Source: a virus (Duplodnaviria; Heunggongvirae; Uroviricota; Caudoviricetes). From it: DNA of 10,386 bases. The translations under genes and the position numbers were made by a program. This document shows positions 1 through 10,386 of the stretch, in pieces; the stretch's first letter is position 1, and each line of letters starts with the position of its first letter. Where the stretch lies: positions 1 to 10,386 of the IMG/VR virus record IMGVR_UViG_2529292735_000026. One strand, given 5' to 3'. Under the pieces are notes generated by a model, which saw only the letters and a program-made list of their open reading frames with translations, made no database searches and was not told where the DNA came from.

Positions 1-369
1 ATGAATGGAATGGTGGAGAAGAATGGCACGCTGTCGAAAAAATCCAGACTGGGCGAAGCGTTCAGCTATGTACTGAATCAGTGGGACGCCCTCTGTTATT
101 ACAGTGATGACGGTCTGGCGGAGGTGGACAATAACACAGCGGAAAGAGCGCTTCGTGCAGTCTGTCTCGGAAAGAAAAATTACGTGTTCTTCGGTAGCGA
201 TCACGGCGGCGAGCGTGGAGCACTGCTGTACGGGCTGATCGGCACCTGCCGACTGAACGGTATCGATCCGGAAGCGTATCTGCGCCATATTCTGAGCGTA
301 CTGCCGGAATGGCCCTCCAACCGTGTTGACGAACTCCTGCCATGGAACGTAGTACTCACCAATAAATAA
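1..369 (+). CDS. IS66-family transposase, C-terminal fragment (5' end lies outside the window)
   Basis: Translation (…KNYVFFGSDHGGERGALLYGLIGTCRLNGIDPEAYLRHILSVLPEWPSNRVDELLPW…) resembles the conserved C-terminal region of IS66-family TnpC transposases as I recall them; ORF runs to the window edge; stop TAA at 367-369. Confidence 0.8.
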   Translation: MNGMVEKNGTLSKKSRLGEAFSYVLNQWDALCYYSDDGLAEVDNNTAERALRAVCLGKKNYVFFGSDHGGERGALLYGLIGTCRLNGIDPEAYLRHILSVLPEWPSNRVDELLPWNVVLTNK

Positions 370-399
370 GCGTCAATACGGTGCTCCGTTGACGCTTAC
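1..399 (+). mobile_element. IS66-family insertion sequence, right end (partial) with terminal inverted repeat at about 370-399
   Basis: Immediately after the transposase stop, 370-399 (gcgtcaatacggtgctccgttgacgcttac) reads in reverse complement as GTAAGCGTCAACGG…, the GTAA-initiated terminus typical of IS66-family IRs; sequence beyond 399 resumes in-frame phage tail-fibre-assembly coding sequence. Confidence 0.7.
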
Positions 400-762
400 G
401 ATAATATCATCCGCTATGTGGAAAAGGATGTGACAGCTATCAGACCGGATGGATTAAGTGTTGTTGAAGTGGCGGATATTACTGCTAACCGACGGGCGGA
501 CATTTCAGGGAACTGGATGTTTAAGGATGGCACAGTGATCAAACGAATTTATACGGCAGAGGAATTGCAACTGCAGGCAGAAAACCGGAAAGCCAGACTT
601 CTTGCAGATGCTGAATCCGTGATTTTGCCGCTAGAGCGTGCTGTCAGGCTGAACATGGCAACAGAGGAGGAGCGCACACGGCTGGAGGCTTGGGAACGCT
701 ACAGCGTTGTGGTCAGTCGTGTGGATCCTGCAAATCCTGAATGGCCGGAAATGCCGCAATAA
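400..762 (+). pseudogene. Tail fibre assembly protein (P2 G-like), 3' remnant truncated by the IS66 insertion
   Basis: Frame is open from the IS junction with no ATG or RBS (only a GTG at 418); translation ends …[34 protein letters not shown], the conserved C-terminal region of phage Tfa proteins (P2 G, lambda Tfa, Mu U); about 120 codons where an intact G-like protein is about 175 aa. Confidence 0.7.
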
Positions 763-948
763 GTTGTATGAACTCTGGTGTGAGCTTACATATCTATGGC
801 ACAGAGTAAAGCCTAATCTGACAGTCCGCTCTGTGCCAGGAGCGGAAGTTGCCAAGAGAACTCTTGCAAAGGTATGATAACGTAGGTGCTAAATAATCAT
901 GAACCATAATAAATTAAAGGTTTTTAAGTTAACTCTATGGCGTTTCTT

Positions 949-978
949 TTGCATGATGATTTTTATTTATTATATAAA
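949..978 (+). promoter_or_regulatory. Putative sigma70-type promoter for the 447-aa cargo ORF (TTGCAT, 18-nt spacer, TATAAA)
   Basis: TTGCAT at 949-954 and TATAAA at 973-978 inside a very AT-rich stretch, about 65 nt upstream of ATG 1043; pattern match only. Confidence 0.35.
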
Positions 979-1042
979 GCTTAAATATACATAATATTTA
1001 GCTTCATTTTTTTAGGTATTTTAAAGATTTAGAGGAATGTGA

Positions 1043-2386
1043 ATGGCTACTTATGCTTCTTATTTACCAGAATCACAAATTATCACTTTGTGCAAGGATT
1101 TCCCAGCGTTTACTGATCCTGAAAAATTAGATGGATTCATTAATCCAGAACAGTTTGGCGTGTTTTTTCATGAGTGGATTCATTTTCTTCACAATATTTC
1201 CACAATTAATGGGTTTTCTATTTTTTGCACGCAAAACATCCTGTGGTCTAATTTTCGCTGGGCAATGGACAATCAGGATGTATGTCTTGGTTCAAATGAC
1301 ATGGATCCAGCACATATCGAATCAAACAAAAATTTTCTCAGTTACATTCGTTCCAATAGGAGTCTGCATAAATGTAACTTACCTTATTATGTAAAAGTAA
1401 ACGACTTGTATTTTGAGGATGCAATAATCCATGACATGGAGGTTGCTGACGGTAGTGTTATATGTACATCATTAATAAAGTGTAGAATTTCTCATTCTGA
1501 AAACAAATACGATCTAGATTTAGGCGTGCTTGAAATACTTGAATCCGCAGCTTTTATGCTTGAATGTAAGTGTATTAATGCGATGAATGGCTTCCCTCAA
1601 GAGGCACCCTTTTATCCGTATCATACTATCAAGGGCTTAGCAGCGAAAATTGCTCCGTCATTAAATGATGAAGATATTATTTGTTGTATGTTAGCTTCTT
1701 TGCAATCTAATAACCCTCCCCAAGTATTATTCAATCTACTACATAAATGTGAATTATTACATTCTGATTGTAGGTATGAACATCTAGTGGCGGAGGTGAA
1801 AAAACAATTAAGCGAACAAGATCAAATAATAAGCGAGTCACTTAATCAAATAATTCAAATGATTCCTGTTGATGAACCGATGGGAAACTTTATCAAGCTT
1901 ACTCTTAACAGAATAAGTAACAATTTGAACTATAGAAAGCAAAAACCGTTTTTTGAGTTAGATATAATAAAAAAAATAGCAGAAAAAACTGAGTTTATGA
2001 ATGAAGTAATACAGAAATTCGGTGGTTGCACTATCATCCAGGTAAGACATGGAGATGATAATGAACCACAGCGTGATATTATGTATGACTTTTGCTTACC
2101 TGAAAATAATGATTCAATTTTATTTGGTTCGAAAATGCTACGCGCTTGTTTTCACTTTATATTTATTCACTTTAAACTTTCTGGTGAAATCATGAAGACA
2201 GAAGAATTAAATATTTCGCCGCGTAATAAATGCCCATTTTATACTGTTTGCTGTGCATCAATTCGAGCTAATAATAGTAATATCTGCGCTGAATCCCCTT
2301 GGAAATCAATGTCTATTGATGACAACAAAGGTTGTTATTATGCAGCAGCGATTAAAGCTACTAACCCACCAGTTTTGCCGGATTAA
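1043..2386 (+). CDS. Hypothetical protein, 447 aa; AT-rich cargo gene in the G-FI (Z/fun-equivalent) slot; HExxH motif near the N-terminus, cysteine-rich; candidate phage-exclusion or defence protein
   Basis: Long uninterrupted ORF; RBS AGAGGAA at 1029-1035 about 7 nt before the ATG; sampled 60-nt stretches are about 23-37% G+C against about 60% in the adjacent sheath gene; followed by a hairpin and an intrinsic terminator; no competing ORF on either strand between 860 and 2640. Confidence 0.85.
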   Translation: MATYASYLPESQIITLCKDFPAFTDPEKLDGFINPEQFGVFFHEWIHFLHNISTINGFSIFCTQNILWSNFRWAMDNQDVCLGSNDMDPAHIESNKNFLSYIRSNRSLHKCNLPYYVKVNDLYFEDAIIHDMEVADGSVICTSLIKCRISHSENKYDLDLGVLEILESAAFMLECKCINAMNGFPQEAPFYPYHTIKGLAAKIAPSLNDEDIICCMLASLQSNNPPQVLFNLLHKCELLHSDCRYEHLVAEVKKQLSEQDQIISESLNQIIQMIPVDEPMGNFIKLTLNRISNNLNYRKQKPFFELDIIKKIAEKTEFMNEVIQKFGGCTIIQVRHGDDNEPQRDIMYDFCLPENNDSILFGSKMLRACFHFIFIHFKLSGEIMKTEELNISPRNKCPFYTVCCASIRANNSNICAESPWKSMSIDDNKGCYYAAAIKATNPPVLPD

Positions 2387-2520
2387 GAATAGTGTTCTAT
2401 CTGATAAATATAAAATATTTAAGGTCAGGTCTGCTTATCGCTCAAAGCAGACTGTCAGATTTGATAACGTTTGGGCTATGTAAACCGTCAGTTGGAAAAT
2501 GAGTGAGTGCAAGTCAGGAC

Positions 2521-2548
2521 AGGCGGGCGGATTGCCCGCCTTTTCTTT
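2521..2548 (+). terminator. Rho-independent terminator downstream of the cargo ORF
   Basis: Perfect 8-bp GC-rich stem aggcgggc (2521-2528) / gcccgcct (2534-2541), 5-nt loop, followed by TTTCTTT. Confidence 0.6.
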
Positions 2549-2549
2549 A

Positions 2550-2640
2550 TCTGTTGTTTCATCCACTGACCAGCCAGGTCAAATAGCGCCTCATGCTCTG
2601 CACAACAGAAAATAGTTGCACCCATTAACCACGGAGTTAA
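2550..2640 (+). promoter_or_regulatory. Putative Ogr-dependent late promoter (P_F equivalent) upstream of FI
   Basis: Positional analogy to P2 P_F. A TGT-N12-cCA element (2555-2572) is a one-mismatch match to the TGT-N12-ACA dyad I recall for P2 late promoters, centred about 80 nt upstream of the FI ATG; no convincing -10 hexamer identified. Confidence 0.3.
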
Positions 2641-2644
2641 ACGG

Positions 2645-3835
2645 ATGAGTGACTATCATCACGGCGTGCAGGTGCTGGAGATTAACGACGGCACACGCGT
2701 CATTTCCACCGTATCCACTGCCATTGTCGGCATGGTCTGCACGGCCAGCGATGCGGATGCGGAAACCTTCCCCCTCAATAAACCTGTGCTGATTACCAAT
2801 GTGCAGAGTGCAATTGCAAAGGCCGGTAAAAAAGGCACGCTGGCGGCATCGTTGCAGGCCATCGCTGACCAGTCAAAACCGGTCACCGTTGTCGTGCGCG
2901 TGGAAGACGGCACCGGTGATGACGAGGAAACGAAACTCGCGCAGACCGTTTCTAATATTATCGGCACCACTGACGAAAACGGTCAGTACACCGGACTGAA
3001 AGCCCTGCTGGCGGCGGAGTCGGTAACCGGTGTTAAACCGCGTATTCTTGGTGTGCCGGGGCTGGATACCAAAGAGGTGGCTGTTGCACTGGCATCAGTC
3101 TGTCAGAAGCTGCGCGCTTTCGGATATATCAGCGCATGGGGCTGTAAGACCATTTCCGAGGTGAAAGCCTACCGCCAGAATTTCAGCCAGCGTGAGCTGA
3201 TGGTCATCTGGCCGGATTTCCTCGCATGGGATACGGTCACCAGTACCACCGCCACCGCGCATGCCACCGCCCGTGCGCTGGGTCTGCGCGCTAAAATCGA
3301 CCAGGAGCAGGGCTGGCATAAAACGCTGTCCAACGTTGGGGTAAACGGTGTTACCGGCATCAGCGCATCTGTATTCTGGGATTTGCAGGAGTCCGGCACC
3401 GATGCTGACCTGCTTAACGAGTCAGGCGTCACTACGCTGATTCGCCGTGACGGTTTCCGCTTCTGGGGTAACCGTACCTGCTCTGATGACCCGCTGTTCC
3501 TCTTTGAAAACTACACCCGCACCGCGCAGGTGCTGGCCGACACGATGGCTGAGGCGCACATGTGGGCGGTGGACAAGCCCATCACCGCAACGCTGATTCG
3601 CGACATCGTTGACGGCATCAATGCCAAATTCCGTGAGCTGAAAACAAACGGCTATATCGTGGATGCGACCTGCTGGTTCAGCGAAGAATCCAACGATGCG
3701 GAAACCCTCAAGGCCGGAAAACTGTATATCGACTACGACTATACCCCGGTGCCTCCTCTCGAAAACCTGACCCTGCGCCAGCGTATTACTGATAAATACC
3801 TGGCAAGTCTGGTCACCTCGGTTAACAGCAATTAA
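2645..3835 (+). CDS. FI: Contractile tail sheath protein (P2 gpFI-like), 396 aa
   Basis: N-terminus MSDYHHGVQVLEINDGTRVI… and length match P2 FI as I recall it; high G+C; syntenic with the following tail genes. Confidence 0.93.
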   Translation: MSDYHHGVQVLEINDGTRVISTVSTAIVGMVCTASDADAETFPLNKPVLITNVQSAIAKAGKKGTLAASLQAIADQSKPVTVVVRVEDGTGDDEETKLAQTVSNIIGTTDENGQYTGLKALLAAESVTGVKPRILGVPGLDTKEVAVALASVCQKLRAFGYISAWGCKTISEVKAYRQNFSQRELMVIWPDFLAWDTVTSTTATAHATARALGLRAKIDQEQGWHKTLSNVGVNGVTGISASVFWDLQESGTDADLLNESGVTTLIRRDGFRFWGNRTCSDDPLFLFENYTRTAQVLADTMAEAHMWAVDKPITATLIRDIVDGINAKFRELKTNGYIVDATCWFSEESNDAETLKAGKLYIDYDYTPVPPLENLTLRQRITDKYLASLVTSVNSN

Positions 3836-3847
3836 GGAGCCTGACCG

Positions 3848-4366
3848 ATGGCAATGCCGCGCAAACTCAAGTTAATGAACGTCTTTCTGAACGGCTACAA
3901 CTATCAGGGCGTCGCGAAGTCCGTCACGCTGCCAAAACTGACCCGTAAGCTCGAAAACTATCGCGGTGCGGGGATGAACGGCAGCGCACCGGTAGACCTC
4001 GGCCTTGATGACGATGCGCTGTCAATGGAGTGGTCGCTCGGTGGCTTCCCGGATTCGGTTATCTGGGAGCTTTACGCCGCAACCGGTGTGGATGCCGTAC
4101 CGATTCGTTTTGCAGGCTCTTACCAGCGCGACGATACCGGCGAAACGGTGGCCGTCGAGGTGGTCATGCGTGGACGTCAGAAAGAAATCGACACCGGCGA
4201 GGGCAAACAGGGAGAAGACACCGAGTCGAAAATCTCCGTGGTCTGCACCTATTTCCGGCTGACGATGGACGGTAAGGAGCTGGTCGAAATCGACACCATC
4301 AACATGATTGAGAAGGTGAACGGCGTCGACCGGCTGGAGCAACACCGCCGCAATATCGGCCTGTGA
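3848..4366 (+). CDS. FII: Tail tube protein (P2 gpFII-like), 172 aa
   Basis: Sits immediately downstream of the sheath gene with RBS AAGGAG; size and position match P2 FII. Confidence 0.92.
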   Translation: MAMPRKLKLMNVFLNGYNYQGVAKSVTLPKLTRKLENYRGAGMNGSAPVDLGLDDDALSMEWSLGGFPDSVIWELYAATGVDAVPIRFAGSYQRDDTGETVAVEVVMRGRQKEIDTGEGKQGEDTESKISVVCTYFRLTMDGKELVEIDTINMIEKVNGVDRLEQHRRNIGL

Positions 4367-4422
4367 TTTTCATCCGGTCAGCCTGGCTGACCGGTTAACC
4401 CCGATTCAGAAGTGAGAAAACC

Positions 4423-4698
4423 ATGAACAAAGAAAACGTCATTACCCTGGACAATCCGGTCAAACGTGGTGAGCAGGTTATCGAACAGGTCACGCTGATG
4501 AAACCCAATGCCGGGACGCTACGCGGTGTCAGTCTGGCTGCAGTCGCGAACTCCGAAGTCGATGCACTGATTAAAGTGCTGCCGCGCATGACGGCACCGA
4601 TGCTGACCGAGCAGGAAGTCGCCGCGCTGGAACTGCCTGACCTTGTGGCGCTGGCCGGTAAGGTGGTCGGTTTTTTGTCGCCGAACTCGGTGCAGTGA
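4423..4698 (+). CDS. E: Tail assembly chaperone gpE (P2 E-like), 91 aa
   Basis: Short ORF between the tube and tape-measure genes, the conserved position of tail chaperone genes; contains the slippery heptamer T_TTT_TTG at 4671-4677 near its 3' end. Confidence 0.9.
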   Translation: MNKENVITLDNPVKRGEQVIEQVTLMKPNAGTLRGVSLAAVANSEVDALIKVLPRMTAPMLTEQEVAALELPDLVALAGKVVGFLSPNSVQ

Positions 4699-4850
4699 CG
4701 TTTCCGAAAAATCTCTCGGTCGATGACCTGATGGCGGATGTGGCAGTGATATTTCACTGGCCGCCATCAGAACTGTATCCCATGAGCCTGACCGAACTCA
4801 TCACATGGCGCGAAAAGGCGCTCCGGCGAAGCGGAAACACGAATGAGTAA
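4423..4850 (+). CDS. E': gpE+E' fusion made by programmed -1 ribosomal frameshift at 4671-4677 (about 142 aa)
   Basis: The -1 frame is open from the slippery site T_TTT_TTG to a TAA at 4848-4850, overlapping the T start codon at 4843; mirrors the E/E' arrangement described for P2 and the G/GT chaperone of lambda. Confidence 0.75.
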
Positions 4851-7290
4851 CAATGTAAAATTACAGGTATTGCTCAGGGCTGTTGACCAGGCATCCCGCC
4901 CGTTTAAATCCATCCGCACAGCGAGCAAGTCGCTGTCGGGGGATATCCGGGAAACACAAAAATCACTGCGCGAGCTGAACGGTCACGCATCCCGTATTGA
5001 GGGATTTCGCAAGACCAGTGCGCAGCTCGCCGTGACTGGTCATGCACTTGAAAAGGCACGGCAGGAAGCCGAAGCCCTTGCCACACAGTTTAAAAACACC
5101 GAACGTCCGACCCGTGCTCAGGCGAAAGTGCTGGAATCCGCAAAGCGAGCGGCGGAGGACTTACAGGCGAAATATAACCGCCTGACGGATTCCGTTAAAC
5201 GCCAGCAGCGGGAACTGGCCGCTGTGGGAATTAATACCCGCAATCTTGCACATGATGAGCAGGGACTGAAAAACCGTATCAGTGAAACCACCGCACAGCT
5301 TAACCGGCAGCGTGACGCGCTGGCGCGTGTCAGTGCGCAACAGGCAAAACTTAACGCAGTAAAACAGCGCTATCAGGCAGGAAAGGAGCTGGCCGGAAAT
5401 ATGGCCTCAGTGGGCGCTGCCGGTGTGGGGATTGCGGCGGCGGGAACGATGGCCGGTGTTAAGCTGCTGATGCCCGGTTATGAATTTGCGCAGAAAAACT
5501 CAGAATTACAGGCCGTGCTCGGTGTGGCAAAAGACTCCGCCGAAATGGCCGCGCTACGCAAGCAGGCGCGCCAGCTCGGCGACAATACCGCCGCCTCGGC
5601 GGATGATGCGGCCGGTGCACAGATAATCATCGCGAAAGCGGGTGGGGATGTTGATGCCATTCAGGCGGCAACGCCGGTCACGCTGAATATGGCGCTGGCG
5701 AACCGTCGCACGATGGAAGAAAACGCCGCCCTGCTGATGGGGATGAAATCTGCCTTTCAGCTTTCAAACGATAAGGTTGCTCATATCGGGGATGTTCTCT
5801 CCATGACGATGAACAAAACCGCCGCCGATTTTGACGGTATGAGCGATGCGCTGACCTATGCCGCACCTGTGGCAAAAAATGCCGGTGTCAGCATTGAAGA
5901 AACCGCCGCAATGGTCGGGGCGCTGCATGATGCAAAAATCACAGGCTCAATGGCGGGGACGGGAAGCCGTGCCGTGTTAAGCCGCCTGCAGGCACCGACG
6001 GGAAAAGCATGGGATGCACTCAAAGAGCTTGGCGTGAAAACCTCAGACAGCAAGGGAAACACCCGGCCAATATTTACCATTCTGAAAGAAATGCAGGCCA
6101 GTTTTGAGAAAAACCGGCTCGGTACTGCCCAGCAGGCTGAATACATGAAAACTATTTTCGGGGAGGAGGCCAGCTCAGCCGCCGCCGTGCTGATGACCGC
6201 CGCCTCAACCGGAAAGCTGGACAAACTGACCGCTGCGTTTAAAGCCTCAAACGGGAAGACTGCCGAGCTGGTAAATATCATGCAGGACAACCTCGGCGGT
6301 GACTTTAAGGAGTTTCAGTCCGCTTATGAGGCGGTGGGGACAGACCTGTTTGACCAGCAGGAAGGCGCACTGCGCAAGCTCACACAGACGGCCACAAAGT
6401 ATGTGTTAAAACTCGACGGCTGGATCCAGAAAAACAAATCACTGGCGTCAACCATTGGCATCATTGCCGGTGGCGCGCTGGCGCTTATTGGCATCATCGG
6501 TGCAATTGGTCTTGTAGCCTGGCCGGTTATCACTGGCATCAATGCTATCATCGCGGCAGCAGGCGCAATGGGGGCAATCTTCACGACGGTTGGCAGTGCT
6601 GTTATGACGGCCATCGGGGCGATTAGCTGGCCGGTTGTGGCCGTGGTGGCCGCCATTGTCGCCGGGGCGTTGCTTATCCGTAAATACTGGGAGCCTGTCA
6701 GCGCATTCTTTGGCGGTGTGGTGGAAGGGCTGAAAGCGGCATTTGCGCCGGTGGGGGAACTGTTCACGCCACTTAAGCCGCTGTTTGACTGGCTGGGTGA
6801 AAAGTTACAGGCCGCGTGGCAGTGGTTTAAAAACCTGATTGCCCCGGTTAAAGCCACCCAGGACACCCTGAACCGTTGCCGTGACACGGGCGTCATGTTC
6901 GGGCAGGCACTGGCTGACGCGCTGATGCTGCCGCTTAATGCGTTCAACAAACTGCGCGGCGGTATTGACTGGGTACTGGAAAAACTCGGCGTCATCAACA
7001 AAGAGTCAGGCACGCTTGACCAGACTGCCGCCAGAACTCATGCCGCCACGTATGGCACCGGTGGTTATATTCCGGCGACCAGCTCTTATGCTGGCTATCA
7101 GGCTTATCAGCCAGTTACGGCACCGGCTGGCCGCTCTTATGTGGACCAGAGTAAAAACGAATATCACATCAACCTGACGGGCGGTACTGCGCAGGGGACA
7201 CAGCTCGACCGCCAGTTACAGGATGCGCTCGAAAAATACGAGCGGGATAAACGTGCGCGCGCCCGTGCCAGCATGATGCATGACGGTTAA
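4843..7290 (+). CDS. T: Tail tape measure protein (P2 gpT-like), 815 aa
   Basis: Long ORF with a coiled-coil-like N-terminal part, a Gly/Ala-rich hydrophobic segment (…IGIIAGGALALIGIIGAIGLVAWPVITGINAIIAAAGAMGAIF…) and position after E/E'. Confidence 0.93.
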   Translation: MSNNVKLQVLLRAVDQASRPFKSIRTASKSLSGDIRETQKSLRELNGHASRIEGFRKTSAQLAVTGHALEKARQEAEALATQFKNTERPTRAQAKVLESAKRAAEDLQAKYNRLTDSVKRQQRELAAVGINTRNLAHDEQGLKNRISETTAQLNRQRDALARVSAQQAKLNAVKQRYQAGKELAGNMASVGAAGVGIAAAGTMAGVKLLMPGYEFAQKNSELQAVLGVAKDSAEMAALRKQARQLGDNTAASADDAAGAQIIIAKAGGDVDAIQAATPVTLNMALANRRTMEENAALLMGMKSAFQLSNDKVAHIGDVLSMTMNKTAADFDGMSDALTYAAPVAKNAGVSIEETAAMVGALHDAKITGSMAGTGSRAVLSRLQAPTGKAWDALKELGVKTSDSKGNTRPIFTILKEMQASFEKNRLGTAQQAEYMKTIFGEEASSAAAVLMTAASTGKLDKLTAAFKASNGKTAELVNIMQDNLGGDFKEFQSAYEAVGTDLFDQQEGALRKLTQTATKYVLKLDGWIQKNKSLASTIGIIAGGALALIGIIGAIGLVAWPVITGINAIIAAAGAMGAIFTTVGSAVMTAIGAISWPVVAVVAAIVAGALLIRKYWEPVSAFFGGVVEGLKAAFAPVGELFTPLKPLFDWLGEKLQAAWQWFKNLIAPVKATQDTLNRCRDTGVMFGQALADALMLPLNAFNKLRGGIDWVLEKLGVINKESGTLDQTAARTHAATYGTGGYIPATSSYAGYQAYQPVTAPAGRSYVDQSKNEYHINLTGGTAQGTQLDRQLQDALEKYERDKRARARASMMHDG

Positions 7291-7304
7291 GGAGGTGACG
7301 AAAA

Positions 7305-7784
7305 ATGATGCTCGCGTTAGGTATGTTTGTTTTTATGCGCCAGACGCTGCCACACCAGACCATGCAGCGTGAATCAGATTATCGCTGGCCGTCAAATTCC
7401 TGTATCGGTAAACGGGATGCCTTTCAGTTTCTCGGTGTGGGTGAGGAAAACATCACGCTTGCCGGTGTGCTTTATCCTGAACTGACCGGCGGGAAGCTGA
7501 CGATGACCACGCTCAGGCTGATGGCAGAGGAAGGCCGGGCGTGGCCGTTGCTGGATGGCACCGGCATGATTTACGGCATGTATGTCATCAGCAGGGTGAG
7601 TGAAACAGGGAGTATTTTCTTTGCAGACGGCACACCCCGGAAAATTGATTTTACGCTGTCGCTCACCCGCGTTGATGAATCACTGGCCGCGCTTTATGGC
7701 GATATCGGTAAACAGGCGGAATCGCTCATCGGTAAGGCTGGCAGTATGGCGACTAAATTCACGGGTATGACGGGGGCGGGATAA
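7305..7784 (+). CDS. U: Tail protein gpU (P2 U-like), 159 aa
   Basis: RBS AAGGAGG upstream; syntenic position between T and D; stop overlaps the D start (ATAATG). Confidence 0.9.
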   Translation: MMLALGMFVFMRQTLPHQTMQRESDYRWPSNSCIGKRDAFQFLGVGEENITLAGVLYPELTGGKLTMTTLRLMAEEGRAWPLLDGTGMIYGMYVISRVSETGSIFFADGTPRKIDFTLSLTRVDESLAALYGDIGKQAESLIGKAGSMATKFTGMTGAG

Positions 7785-8947
7785 TGCTGGATGCACTGAC
7801 ATTTGATGCAGGCAGTACGCTGACGCCGGATTACATGCTGATGCTCGACAGCAGGGATATTACCGGCAATATCAGCGACCGTCTGATGAGTATGACCCTG
7901 ACGGATAACCGGGGTTTTGAGGCTGACCAGCTTGATATTGAACTGAACGATGCCGACGGGCAGGTCGGGCTGCCGGTTCGTGGCGCTGTCCTGACGGTGT
8001 ATATCGGCTGGAAAGGTTTTGCCCTGGTATGCAAAGGGAAATTCACCGTTGATGAGGTTGAACACCGGGGCGCGCCGGATGTGGTCACCATCCGCGCCCG
8101 GAGTGCAGATTTCCGCGGGACGCTCAATTCCCGCCGTGAAGGTTCCTGGCATGACACCACGCTCGGTGCGATTGTTGAGGCGATAGCCTCCCGTAACAGG
8201 CTGGAAGCCAGTGTCGCTCCGTCACTGGCCGGAATTAAAATCCCGCACATCGACCAGTCGCAGGAGTCTGATGCGAAATTCCTGACCCGTCTTGCAGAAC
8301 GCAACGGCGGTGAGGTGTCGGTAAAAATGGGAAAATTGTTGTTTCTCAAAGCGGGGCAGGGGGTGACGGCCAGCGGTAAGAAAATCCCGCAGGTCACCAT
8401 CACCCGCAGCGACGGCGACCGTCATCATTTTGCGATTGCTGACCGTGGAGCCTACACCGGCGTAACGGCAAAGTGGTTACACACCAAAGACCCGAAGCCG
8501 CAAAAGCAGAAGGTAAAACTGAAACGCAAAAAGAAAGAAAAACACCTGCGCGCACTGGAGCACCCGAAAGCGAAACCGGTCAGGCAGAAGATAGCGCCCA
8601 AAGTGCCGGAAGCGCGCGAAGGTGAATACATGGCCGGTGAGGCTGATAACGTTTTTGCCCTGACCACGGTATATGCCACGAAAGCACAGGCCATGCGCGC
8701 CGCTCAGGCGAAGTGGGACAAACTGCAACGGGGCGTTGCGGAGTTCTCCATCAGCCTTGCCACTGGTCGGGCTGATATTTACACGGAAACGCCGGTCAGA
8801 GTGTCAGGCTTTAAGCGCGTCATAGACGAGCAGGACTGGACAATCACTAAGGTGACACATTTTCTGAATAATAGCGGCTTCACGACGTCCTTGGAGCTTG
8901 AGGTCAGGCTTTCTGATGTGGAGTACGAAACAGAAGATGATGAGTGA
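7784..8947 (+). CDS. D: Tail protein gpD (P2 D-like), 387 aa
   Basis: Translationally coupled to U; size and position match P2 D; contains a Lys-rich segment (…KPQKQKVKLKRKKKEKH…). Confidence 0.9.
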   Translation: MLDALTFDAGSTLTPDYMLMLDSRDITGNISDRLMSMTLTDNRGFEADQLDIELNDADGQVGLPVRGAVLTVYIGWKGFALVCKGKFTVDEVEHRGAPDVVTIRARSADFRGTLNSRREGSWHDTTLGAIVEAIASRNRLEASVAPSLAGIKIPHIDQSQESDAKFLTRLAERNGGEVSVKMGKLLFLKAGQGVTASGKKIPQVTITRSDGDRHHFAIADRGAYTGVTAKWLHTKDPKPQKQKVKLKRKKKEKHLRALEHPKAKPVRQKIAPKVPEAREGEYMAGEADNVFALTTVYATKAQAMRAAQAKWDKLQRGVAEFSISLATGRADIYTETPVRVSGFKRVIDEQDWTITKVTHFLNNSGFTTSLELEVRLSDVEYETEDDE

Positions 8948-9028
8948 TGTTTTTATTTTATCTATTTGTTTTATAAGGATAAATTAACTAGAATGGCACT
9001 ATCAACAAAACCGGAAGAGGTGCTCGCG

Positions 9029-9247
9029 ATGTTTCATTGTCCTTTATGCCAGCATGCCGCACATGCGCGTACAAGCCGCTATATCACTGACACGACAAAA
9101 GAGCGTTATCACCAGTGTCAGAACGTGAATTGCAGCGCCACGTTCATCACCTATGAGTCGGTACAGAGATACATCGTGAAGCCGGGAGAAGTCCACGCCG
9201 TAAGGCCGCACCCGTTGCCGTCAGGGCAGCAAATTATGTGGATGTGA
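9029..9247 (+). CDS. ogr: Late transcription activator Ogr (zinc-finger), 72 aa
   Basis: Translation MFHCPLCQHAAHARTSRYITDTTKERYHQCQNVNCSATFITYESVQRYIVKPGEVHAVRPHPLPSGQQIMWM matches P2 Ogr as I recall it, with the C-x2-C…C-x4-C zinc finger; ATG 9029 chosen over the upstream TTG (8966) and ATG (8993) because of the GAGG RBS spacing and the canonical 72-aa length. Confidence 0.9.
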   Translation: MFHCPLCQHAAHARTSRYITDTTKERYHQCQNVNCSATFITYESVQRYIVKPGEVHAVRPHPLPSGQQIMWM

Positions 9248-9251
9248 TCAC

Positions 9252-9285
9252 AAAAATAGCCCCTCAGTTGAGGGGCTTTATTTAT
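9252..9285 (+). terminator. Rho-independent terminator after ogr (end of the late/tail transcription unit)
   Basis: 9-bp stem agcccctca (9258-9266) / tgaggggct (9269-9277) with a 2-nt loop, flanked by an A-run upstream and TTATTTAT downstream. Confidence 0.6.
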
Positions 9286-9291
9286 GGTCGA

Positions 9292-9320
9292 TGTGGACGC
9301 TATGTGGACAGCGGTTGACA
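9292..9320 (+). other. Putative integrase arm-type binding sites in attR (direct repeats TGTGGAC-G, TGTGGACA, GTTGACA)
   Basis: Three direct repeats at 9292, 9303 and 9314 with roughly one helical turn spacing; TGTGGACA is, to my recollection, the arm-site consensus of P2 integrase; located between ogr and host DNA where the attR arm is expected. Confidence 0.5.
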
Positions 9321-9375
9321 TAAATCCATTTATATCATCAGGTTAGGTGCTTTTTTGTGACACCATCCCTGTCTT

Positions 9376-9403
9376 CCCCCACATGATGTGGGGGTTTTTT
9401 TTA
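9376..9403 (+). terminator. Strong rho-independent terminator; probably host-derived (possibly the 3' end of the cpxP/CpxQ transcript) or part of the att core region
   Basis: GC-rich stem cccccaca / tgtggggg around a short loop, followed by a T8 run (9395-9402). Confidence 0.65.
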
Positions 9404-9429
9404 TCCTCAATTTGCCTGCTGCTTAATGC

Positions 9430-9456
9430 ATTGCAGATGATTTGCTTCCGTTATAC
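9430..9456 (+). promoter_or_regulatory. Possible fieF promoter (TTGCAG, 15-nt spacer, TATACT)
   Basis: Hexamer match only; spacer is short; about 30 nt upstream of the fieF ATG. Confidence 0.25.
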
Positions 9457-9483
9457 TAGCGTCAGTTGATAGCGGGAGTATTT

Positions 9484-10386
9484 ATGAATCAATCTTATGG
9501 ACGGCTGGTCAGTCGGGCGGCGATTGCTGCGACGGCGATGGCTTCGTTGCTATTGCTGATTAAAATTTTTGCATGGTGGTATACCGGGTCGGTGAGTATT
9601 CTCGCCGCGCTGGTGGATTCGCTGGTGGATATCGGCGCGTCGTTGACGAATTTACTGGTGGTGCGATATTCCCTGCAACCTGCCGACGATAATCACTCGT
9701 TTGGTCACGGTAAAGCAGAGTCCCTCGCGGCGCTGGCGCAAAGTATGTTTATCTCCGGTTCGGCACTATTCCTGTTTTTGACGGGTATTCAACATCTGAT
9801 ATCTCCAACACCGATGACAGATCCAGGCGTCGGGGTTATCGTGACAATTGTGGCGCTAATTTGTACGATTATCCTTGTCTCGTTTCAGCGTTGGGTGGTG
9901 CGCCGGACGCAAAGCCAGGCGGTGCGGGCTGATATGCTACATTACCAGTCTGATGTTATGATGAACGGCGCAATTCTGCTGGCGCTGGGGTTGTCCTGGT
10001 ACGGCTGGCATCGCGCCGATGCTCTGTTTGCATTGGGAATCGGCATCTATATTTTATATAGCGCGTTACGCATGGGATATGAGGCGGTACAGTCATTACT
10101 GGATCGCGCATTGCCTGATGAGGAACGGCAAGAAATTATTGATATCGTGACTTCCTGGCCGGGTGTTAGCGGCGCTCACGATCTTCGCACGCGGCAGTCA
10201 GGGCCGACCCGCTTTATTCAGATTCATTTGGAAATGGAAGACTCTCTGCCTTTGGTTCAGGCACATATGGTGGCGGATCAGGTAGAGCAGGCTATTTTAC
10301 GGCGTTTTCCGGGATCGGATGTGATTATCCATCAGGACCCCTGTTCCGTCGTACCCAGGGAGGGTAAACGGTCTATGCTTTCATAA
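9484..10386 (+). CDS. fieF: Cation diffusion facilitator family ferrous-iron/zinc efflux transporter FieF (YiiP), 300 aa
   Basis: Translation [49 protein letters not shown]… matches E. coli FieF/YiiP as I recall it; RBS GGGAG 5-6 nt upstream of ATG 9484; multiple TM helices followed by a cytoplasmic C-terminal domain; stop TAA at window end. Confidence 0.93.

Follow-up and report, generated by a model that had tools for sequence, protein, structure and literature searches.

An HExxH Motif and an Invariant Four-Cysteine Cluster in a Cargo Protein of the P2 Z/fun Region: a Putative Stand-Alone Metal-Dependent Hydrolase

The window considered here, that is, the whole stretch of DNA analysed, is a sequence of 10,386 nucleotides from a virus of the class Caudoviricetes (IMG/VR record IMGVR_UViG_2529292735_000026, positions 1 to 10,386). 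It corresponds to the right arm of a prophage of the P2-like type and comprises the end of an insertion sequence (IS), a truncated G gene, an open reading frame (ORF), the genes FI, FII, E/E', T, U, D, and ogr, and the host gene fieF. The ORF between G and FI encodes a protein of 447 amino acids which is named "hypothetical protein" in every public source and whose exact sequence occurs on 936 contigs. It is proposed that this protein is a stand-alone cytoplasmic metal-dependent hydrolase which carries a C-terminal metal site of four cysteine (Cys) residues (Cys4) and acts in phage exclusion. A probability of about 0.45 is given to this combined reading, the parts of which differ in strength. 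The four invariant Cys residues are likely to form a functional metal site. There is a somewhat better than even chance that the protein is a metal-dependent hydrolase, most likely a zinc metallopeptidase-like enzyme of a previously undescribed family. A role in phage defence, which is proposed through guilt by association, has odds that are even or barely above even.

Invariant residues and the proposed metal sites

An initial search yielded 36 homologues of the ORF product with identities of 24-100%. When 1.84 billion cluster representatives were searched exhaustively with a hidden Markov model, 1,028 clusters (50% identity) were found at E<=1e-3 and 275 at E<=1e-30, and a second profile search, in a database of 5.8 billion proteins, recovered the same protein set. 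The lengths within the family are uniform, almost all members being full-length proteins of 440-500 amino acids. The family is spread over the Proteobacteria, with distant relatives in the Bacteroidota.

The conservation percentages given throughout refer to an alignment of 163 full-length family representatives. Four Cys residues close to the C-terminus, namely, C397, C403, C415, and C431, are conserved in 100% of them, and they are likewise invariant in alignments of 104-143 sequences. In these latter alignments, in which the mean column identity is 18-20%, the HExxH motif, E167, Y193, R298, and the four Cys account for 8-9 of just 8-9 invariant columns. The C-terminal cluster is under extreme purifying selection, and its four Cys are invariant at about 20% identity between members; the invariance also holds in the GC-rich Betaproteobacteria. 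In the ORF product, the cluster is contained in CPFYTVCCASIRANNSNICAESPWKSMSIDDNKGC, the translation of nucleotides 2231-2335, with the pattern C-x5-CC-x10-C-x15-C (C397, C403, C404, C415, and C431), and the motif of the family is C-P-[FY]-[YF]-x2-C-x4-R-x6-C-x3-P-W-x10-C-[WY]-[YF]. The residues conserved around the cluster are P398, R408, P419, W420, and Y433, and its aromatic residues are F399, Y400, W420, and Y433. The initial annotation of this DNA, made from the sequence alone, had drawn attention to the cluster, and the translation of the ORF confirms both its counts (447 amino acids, 20 Cys) and the coordinates that it gave for the cluster.

A further set of invariant residues, the HExxH motif included, was absent from that annotation. 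The motif reads H43-E44-W-I-H47 and is conserved at 100% for H43 and E44 and at 99% for H47; N51, which follows it, is conserved in 99% of the representatives and H50 in only 72%. E167, which belongs to a G-x-x-E-I-x-E-S-x-A motif, is conserved in 99-100%. Further residues with strong conservation are P192 (99%), Y193 (100%), R298 (100%), H376 (97%), and D345 (87%). The HExxH motif and the invariant E167 point to a second metal site, which is probably catalytic.

In the mechanism proposed, the catalytic metal would be held in the N-terminal domain by H43, H47, and E167. E44 would serve as the general base, and Y193, H376, and R298 would act as auxiliary residues according to a gluzincin-like logic. 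The residues C397, C403, C415, and C431 would hold the other metal, with a structural or regulatory role, as Zn(II) by default or as a [4Fe-4S] cluster, and this Cys4 site may keep a small helical C-terminal subdomain together. The other Cys residues, about 15 in number, are lineage-specific and without motif function.

No CxxC is conserved in the family, and the invariant Cys are spaced x5, x11, and x15. The two CxxC (or CPxC) knuckles of the Cys4 zinc ribbons and treble clefs are not found in the ORF product, nor are the ferredoxin and glycosylase [4Fe-4S] signatures CxxCxxCxxxCP and Cx6Cx2Cx5C, which only C397-P398 resembles; Pfam families of Fe-S proteins are not matched either. Metal coordination, by Zn or Fe-S, had been suggested in the initial annotation from the Cys-rich composition. 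This suggestion is supported for the C-terminal Cys4, which is invariant as in a metal site, and is not supported for the bulk of the Cys. A redox-sensing module, suggested together with it, has nothing that speaks specifically in its favor, and CxxC is lacking.

An alternative which differs from the proposed reading just in the metal and in its role is that the Cys4 site binds [4Fe-4S] and works as a sensor, by redox state or by nucleic-acid binding, that gates the hydrolase, a view not far from the Fe-S or redox-sensing suggestion of the initial annotation. In DNA glycosylases, an Fe-S loop serves in nucleic-acid binding. The long and irregular spacing C-x5-C-x11-C-x15-C without a CxxC knuckle, the conserved Cys-Pro, the four aromatic residues and R408 around the Cys, and the short helices of which the segment consists in the AlphaFold2 model are all consistent with this alternative, as features of this kind characterise Fe-S sites more often than zinc ribbons. 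However, no match was obtained with Fe-S motifs already known, with Pfam families, or with solved structures, and the data fit equally a structural Zn(Cys)4 site of the kind that certain metallopeptidases are known to carry in addition. The [4Fe-4S] sensor is regarded as a possible but doubtful alternative.

A distant relative from the Bacteroidota, encoded in Odoribacter laneus (locus L011, 7899-9200), has about 25% identity to the ORF product over the N-terminal half and retains HEWIH, the Glu motif in the form ME-S-A, and HPYH. Its C-terminus contains six Cys in the order C-x5-C-x11-C-x5-C-x5-C-x13-C, the first three of which are spaced as in the ORF product. This six-Cys pattern suggests a variant of the metal site.

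Cargo position and genomic neighborhoods

The ORF has a guanine-plus-cytosine (GC) content of 34% versus 56% for the phage backbone. It occupies a variable cassette in the P2 Z (Z/fun) region, the breakpoints of which (about 842-850 and 2429) emerge from blastn comparison with three P2-like phages that have different cargo. In these phages, the flanks of which are the same, the slot contains, for example, a pair of small hypothetical genes that run in the opposite direction, or NUDIX and HAD hydrolases. With the known P2 Z/fun cargo, the ORF shares the identical slot from G to FI, the conserved flanks, and the exchange of cargo between them, but it is unrelated to that cargo in sequence.

The gene is present in 13 of 5,426 complete E. 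coli genomes, with at least 99.7% identity and always between G and FI. The same type of prophage with the same cargo adjoins fieF in this window and in APEC O2-211 but pflB in strain 2013C-3492, and from these differing attachment sites, seen in the window and at L002 (17205-19344), it follows that the cargo travels with the phage. The gene is a horizontally acquired, low-GC, single-gene cargo in a hotspot of exclusion and defence. Z/fun is described as the "phage exclusion" region and is one of three in which P2-like phages hold horizontally acquired genes (PMC3091744), and the same slot is the second defence-enriched locus of P2 (PMC9519451).

In an all-against-all blastp comparison of flanking ORFs, no neighbor gene was conserved among the homologous loci, and the gene is therefore considered to stand alone. 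A toxin-antitoxin or multigene system was ruled out, as there is no conserved partner gene. Known defence genes recur near homologues in unrelated genomes; among about 16 distinct loci, this applies to at least 7. In Enterobacter, a retron I-A (reverse transcriptase, PtuA, PtuB) is located upstream, and in a metagenomic integrative element (ANT, Toprim, DUF927) the homologue is accompanied by Gabija GajA and GajB and by a RES protein. In Cupriavidus, Shedu SduA (SduA_C) is found directly upstream and a STAND-like ATPase of 1,798 amino acids downstream. In Paraburkholderia, the homologue is located between a reverse transcriptase with an AAA_15/21 ATPase and an E2-E1-JAB fusion. That of Rhodoferax is preceded by a MukB-like protein and followed by pPIWI-RE. 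The homologue of Sodalis is cargo of a type IV secretion system (T4SS) element and adjoins an ApeA-HEPN protein and an IS, and an integrase island encodes an NB-ARC protein of 900 amino acids. Other homologues are found on a DUF5906 primase-type island beside fis-dusB, directly next to TnsA, TnsB, and TnsC of a Tn7-like element in Rheinheimera, with integrases in Pseudomonas migulae, and next to HNH and Rhs genes in Serratia. The carriers are mobile (Tn7-like elements, integrative and conjugative elements, integrase or P4-like islands), and in most loci the GC content of the homologue is below that of its flanks. Contexts of this kind are characteristic of mobile defence modules that consist of one gene, but the relation is an association and not a proof.

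According to the reading proposed here, the cargo gene would shield the lysogen from other phages. By analogy with Lit of the e14 prophage, infection may activate the protein, and a host or phage target would then be cleaved. Hydropathy revealed neither a signal peptide nor a transmembrane segment in the ORF product (maximum Kyte-Doolittle mean over 19 residues, 1.37), in agreement with the initial annotation as regards the signal peptide, and a secreted or membrane location is ruled out on the same basis.

It is also conceivable that the gene is a mobile-element cargo with a role other than defence, either in counter-defence or competition between elements, through degradation of an immune protein of the host or of a rival, or in lysogenic conversion, with an action on host physiology. 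This is compatible with the presence of non-defence genes in the cargo slots of P2-like phages, the NUDIX and HAD hydrolases that fill the same slot in other phages among them, with the Rhs/PAAR toxin loci or T4SS genes that some homologues adjoin, and with the lack of an anti-phage phenotype in the literature searched. On the other hand, the neighborhoods in unrelated Beta- and Gammaproteobacteria consist mostly of bona fide defence systems and not of anti-defence or virulence genes, the Z/fun slot is a documented exclusion and defence hotspot, and a secretion signal is absent. A non-defence role is judged unlikely.

Predicted fold and relation to known metalloenzymes

The structure of the ORF product was predicted by AlphaFold2 from the alignment of 36 sequences, with a predicted local distance difference test score (pLDDT) of 92.3 and a predicted template modeling score of 0.92. 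The model begins with a β-hairpin and continues with helix 35-53, which contains the HExxH motif, two helices, a five-stranded sheet (123-160), helix 162-180 with E167, a helical part (195-326), and the C-terminal region. In the latter, the segment of the Cys cluster has a pLDDT of 86-93. When isolated, the N-terminal 205 residues also fold confidently (pLDDT 89.4).

Three groups of known proteins can be compared with this arrangement. The likeness to the gluzincins (thermolysin or M48-like clans) consists of the helical HExxH, the invariant Glu in E-S-x-A on a later helix, and the invariant Tyr. The difference is that a β-sheet and two helices (120 residues) are inserted here between the motifs and that neither sequence nor Foldseek similarity to solved zincins is found. 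The archaemetzincins (M54) combine a catalytic HExxH zinc with a structural Zn(Cys)4 site; their motif is HExxHxxGxxH, and the Cys pairs, including a CxxC, lie immediately downstream. The concept of an HExxH metal and a second site of four Cys is shared with the ORF product, but in the latter H50 is conserved in 72%, there is no corresponding Gly, the Cys are 350 residues away, and CxxC is lacking. Finally, Lit of the e14 prophage (Peptidase_U49) is a single-protein HExxH zinc metalloprotease which aborts T4 infection by cleaving EF-Tu. Like the ORF product, it is a cytoplasmic HExxH protein encoded by a single prophage-borne gene with no partner gene. Unlike it, Lit has 297 amino acids instead of 447 and lacks a Cys4 module, and the predicted fold of the ORF product matches no solved structure. 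No homology to Lit was found; alignment of the family profile with E. coli K-12 Lit by hhalign gave a probability of 0.1% and no Peptidase_U49 match was obtained in 104 family members.

Searches for known relatives gave little. The ORF product has no match in Pfam or NCBIfam, none in PADLOC-DB 2.0.0 (candidate systems included) at E<=1, and no homologue by tblastn in 50,697 phage records. The sole library match is PHROG 15354, which is annotated as "unknown function".

Several results weigh against the proposed reading. The distance of 120 residues between H47 and E167 is greater than in classical gluzincins, and the HExxH motif is found in non-protease hydrolases too. The zincin fold is not recognised against solved structures, and a curated peptidase profile is not matched. 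A Pfam scan of 104 family members assigned no family and returned a single marginal match, to Peptidase_M85, in one member (E=0.0097). In the sequences of the PDB, phmmer and profile searches found coiled-coil noise alone. In Foldseek searches, matches of the full model to PDB or BFVD did not go below E=0.6; over the full model and the isolated N-terminal domain, the best E values against PDB were 0.15-1.5, with no zincin or other metallopeptidase among the matches listed. As to the Cys4 site, the spacing of 5, 11, and 15 without CxxC knuckles is atypical for zinc fingers, and the identity of the metal is uncertain for this reason. As to defence, some loci have no defence neighbors, among them that of Aeromonas, in which the gene is solitary and located after the trp operon. 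The protein is not mentioned, and no phage phenotype is reported for it, in the literature and supplements searched by its accession and for anti-phage proteins with HExxH, the DefensePredictor paper included. Given the latter result and the absence of a PADLOC match, the argument for a defence role is guilt by association only. Taken together, the protein appears unplaceable in any peptidase family, and the metallohydrolase reading draws on the motif, its helical setting in the model, and the invariance of the residues.

Some of these results lend weight to the idea that the HExxH site is nonproteolytic, with hydrolysis of nucleotides or nucleic acids as an example, or purely structural, so that the protein would not be a peptidase. 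No zincin fold was recovered by Foldseek, even with the isolated N-terminal domain, and no peptidase family of Pfam in the members scanned; in addition, WLM/DUF45-type nucleotidases and peptide deformylase also have an HExxH motif. However, the helical HExxH followed by an invariant Glu in E-S-x-A on a later helix and by an invariant Tyr is the classical gluzincin signature, and the lone marginal Pfam match, Peptidase_M85, is a zinc protease. This idea is held to be improbable, and a zinc metallopeptidase-like enzyme is preferred. A bolder proposal, in which the protein would represent a new class of single-protein anti-phage effector, an HExxH hydrolase without a relative of solved fold and gated by a C-terminal [4Fe-4S] or Zn sensor, is speculative and considered rather unlikely.

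Cysteine content, other features of the window, and significance

The ORF product contains 20 Cys in 447 residues (4.47%), at positions 17, 62, 81, 111, 141, 147, 175, 177, 214, 215, 236, 243, 329, 351, 369, 397, 403, 404, 415, and 431. The neighboring phage proteins contain 0-1.3%, with the exception of Ogr, and E. coli proteins typically about 1.2%, a norm from which the binomial probability of the observed content is about 5e-7. Codon-position composition predicts 1.9% Cys, and the base composition of the gene, with its 34% GC and the T- and G-containing codons of Cys, predicts 3.1% (P=0.066 for the observed value). The initial annotation had called the Cys content unusual; this is right in comparison with the neighbors and with the E. 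coli norm and loses force against the base composition. The local density is within chance as well, since 48% of shuffled proteins reach five Cys in a window of 35 residues (P=0.48). Richness and clustering are each uncompelling alone. Ogr, the late-gene activator of P2, is the sole other Cys-rich product of the window, with 4 Cys in 72 amino acids (5.6%); it is a zinc-binding protein with a Zn finger.

Conservation separates the Cys residues more clearly. Apart from the four invariant ones, C329 is conserved in 90% of the representatives, and C404, the second Cys of the CC doublet, in 4%. The pairs of Cys which the initial annotation had noted elsewhere in the sequence fare poorly, with 6% and 8% for C175 and C177 (ECKC) and 17% and 45% for C214 and C215 (IICC), and all other Cys are conserved in 39% or less. 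From these data it follows that ECKC, IICC, and the CC doublet are not motif elements. Conservation of the Cys among homologues, which had been put forward as one half of the test of the metal-site proposal, is found for C397, C403, C415, and C431, whereas 14 of the 20 are present in less than half of the representatives, Ser or Ala often taking their place. Moreover, the number of Cys falls with identity to the ORF product, being 19-20 at 72% or more, 14-18 at 60-70%, and only 9-13 below 55%, and the median Cys content of the family is 2.2%. Because of these counts, this median, and the poor conservation of the 14 residues, Cys-richness is not a property of the family. By the measure of conservation, the high Cys content is a trait of one enterobacterial lineage, and the four-Cys motif is a trait of the family.

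A further explanation is that the Cys richness results from the composition of a gene that is AT-rich and evolves fast and that the pattern at the C-terminus is meaningless, as the base composition, the shuffling result, and the 14 poorly conserved Cys would allow. This is very improbable. Of the five Cys in the cluster, four occur in 100% of the representatives despite an overall identity of about 20%, GC-rich Betaproteobacteria included, and the Bacteroidota homologue retains the spacing of the first three. By this conservation, the explanation is refuted for C397, C403, C415, and C431, and it stands for the other Cys.

The features of the window and of the ORF product are collected in Table 1.

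Table 1. Coordinates of the features in the 10,386-nucleotide window.
Feature	Position	Strand	Remarks
3' end of IS66-family element	1-399		ISEc47-like transposase C-terminus; junction about 399-400
G	418-762		tail-fibre assembly; truncated
Inverted repeat, left arm	815..846	.	exactly at left cassette edge
Promoter candidate, sigma-70-like	849..878	+	TTGCCA-18-TATGAT, 10/12 matches
Variable cargo cassette, P2 Z (Z/fun) region	851..2428	.	between tail-fibre assembly G and sheath FI
Direct repeat, first copy	870-896		just inside cassette border
Shine-Dalgarno GAGGA	1032-1036	+	6 nucleotides upstream of ATG
Cargo ORF	1043..2386	+	447 amino acids; WP_000257039.1, UniProt A0A246VX28; 34% GC; PHROG 15354 family
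HExxH motif H43-E44-W-I-H47	1169..1183	+	in predicted helix 35-53; then N51, S53, T54, G57
E167	1541..1543	+	start of helix 162-180; candidate third ligand of the HExxH metal, from the motif
P192-Y193	1616..1621	+	Y193 candidate catalytic or transition-state residue
All-helical middle region, about residues 195-326	1625..2020	+	sequence variable save L220 and R298; possible regulatory/sensor region
Start of C-terminal region	2027..2170	+	C329 (90%), D345 (87%), H376 (97%)
Cys cluster C397, C403, (C404), C415, C431	2231..2335	+	4 of 5 invariant; proposed Cys4 metal site
Inverted repeat, right arm	2430..2461	.	exactly at right cassette edge
Direct repeat, second copy	2457-2483		just outside cassette border
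Intrinsic-terminator-like hairpin and T tract	2521..2551 (hairpin 2521-2541)	+	9-base-pair stem, 7 G-C pairs
Tail chaperone pair E and E+E'	4423-4850
"GpE family" ORF	about 4695-4850		in annotation of identical prophages; overlaps end of E
ogr	9029-9247		72 amino acids
fieF	9250-10386 (region where the prophage adjoins fieF)		host gene

The promoter upstream of the ORF is a prediction only, because the number of promoters in the region is not above the expectation from shuffled sequence. The strong terminator-like hairpin is located between the ORF and the late gene FI, within the conserved P2 flank. The two arms of the inverted repeat are 32 nucleotides long and 78% complementary, have the perfect core AATCTGACAGTC/GACTGTCAGATT, and lie in the conserved P2 flanks; they could mark the site of cargo exchange or represent paired elements with a structural or terminator role. 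The direct repeat of 27 nucleotides (74% identity, ...GATAACGT...GCTA..TAA) may be the remnant of an earlier recombination joint. No Rfam non-coding RNA was found in the window, and a retron-like arrangement is ruled out on this ground.

At the left end of the window, the terminal sequence of the IS66-family element is ...TGACGCTTAC, and G lacks about its first 61 codons. As the IS end truncates G, the prophage is disrupted in this strain, and the cargo gene is intact. Intact copies of the prophage encode, outside the window (L001, 2644-3429), an unannotated protein of 261 amino acids (WP_001504911.1) on the opposite strand in the orf30 slot, which lies between a virion morphogenesis gene and the baseplate gene V. 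In P2-like phages, this slot is a further region of variable cargo. The overlap of the "GpE family" ORF with the end of E is consistent with the known programmed frameshift.

The family to which the ORF product belongs is undescribed and widespread, its fold is predicted with confidence, and its site in the P2-like prophage is a known defence hotspot. By analogy with Lit, the kind of protein would already be known, namely, a prophage-borne single-protein HExxH effector. For annotation, the lesson is that the raw Cys percentage is misleading, as it reflects lineage-specific drift in an AT-rich gene, and that conservation picks out the four residues that count. Conservation also provides the targets for mutagenesis, namely, H43, E44, H47, E167, Y193, R298, H376, C397, C403, C415, and C431. 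If the proposed reading is true, about 1,000 clusters of "hypothetical proteins" would gain a testable function, the Z/fun hotspot of P2 would have one more candidate for defence by a single gene, and the known metallohydrolase folds would be joined by a new one that includes an accessory Cys4 site.

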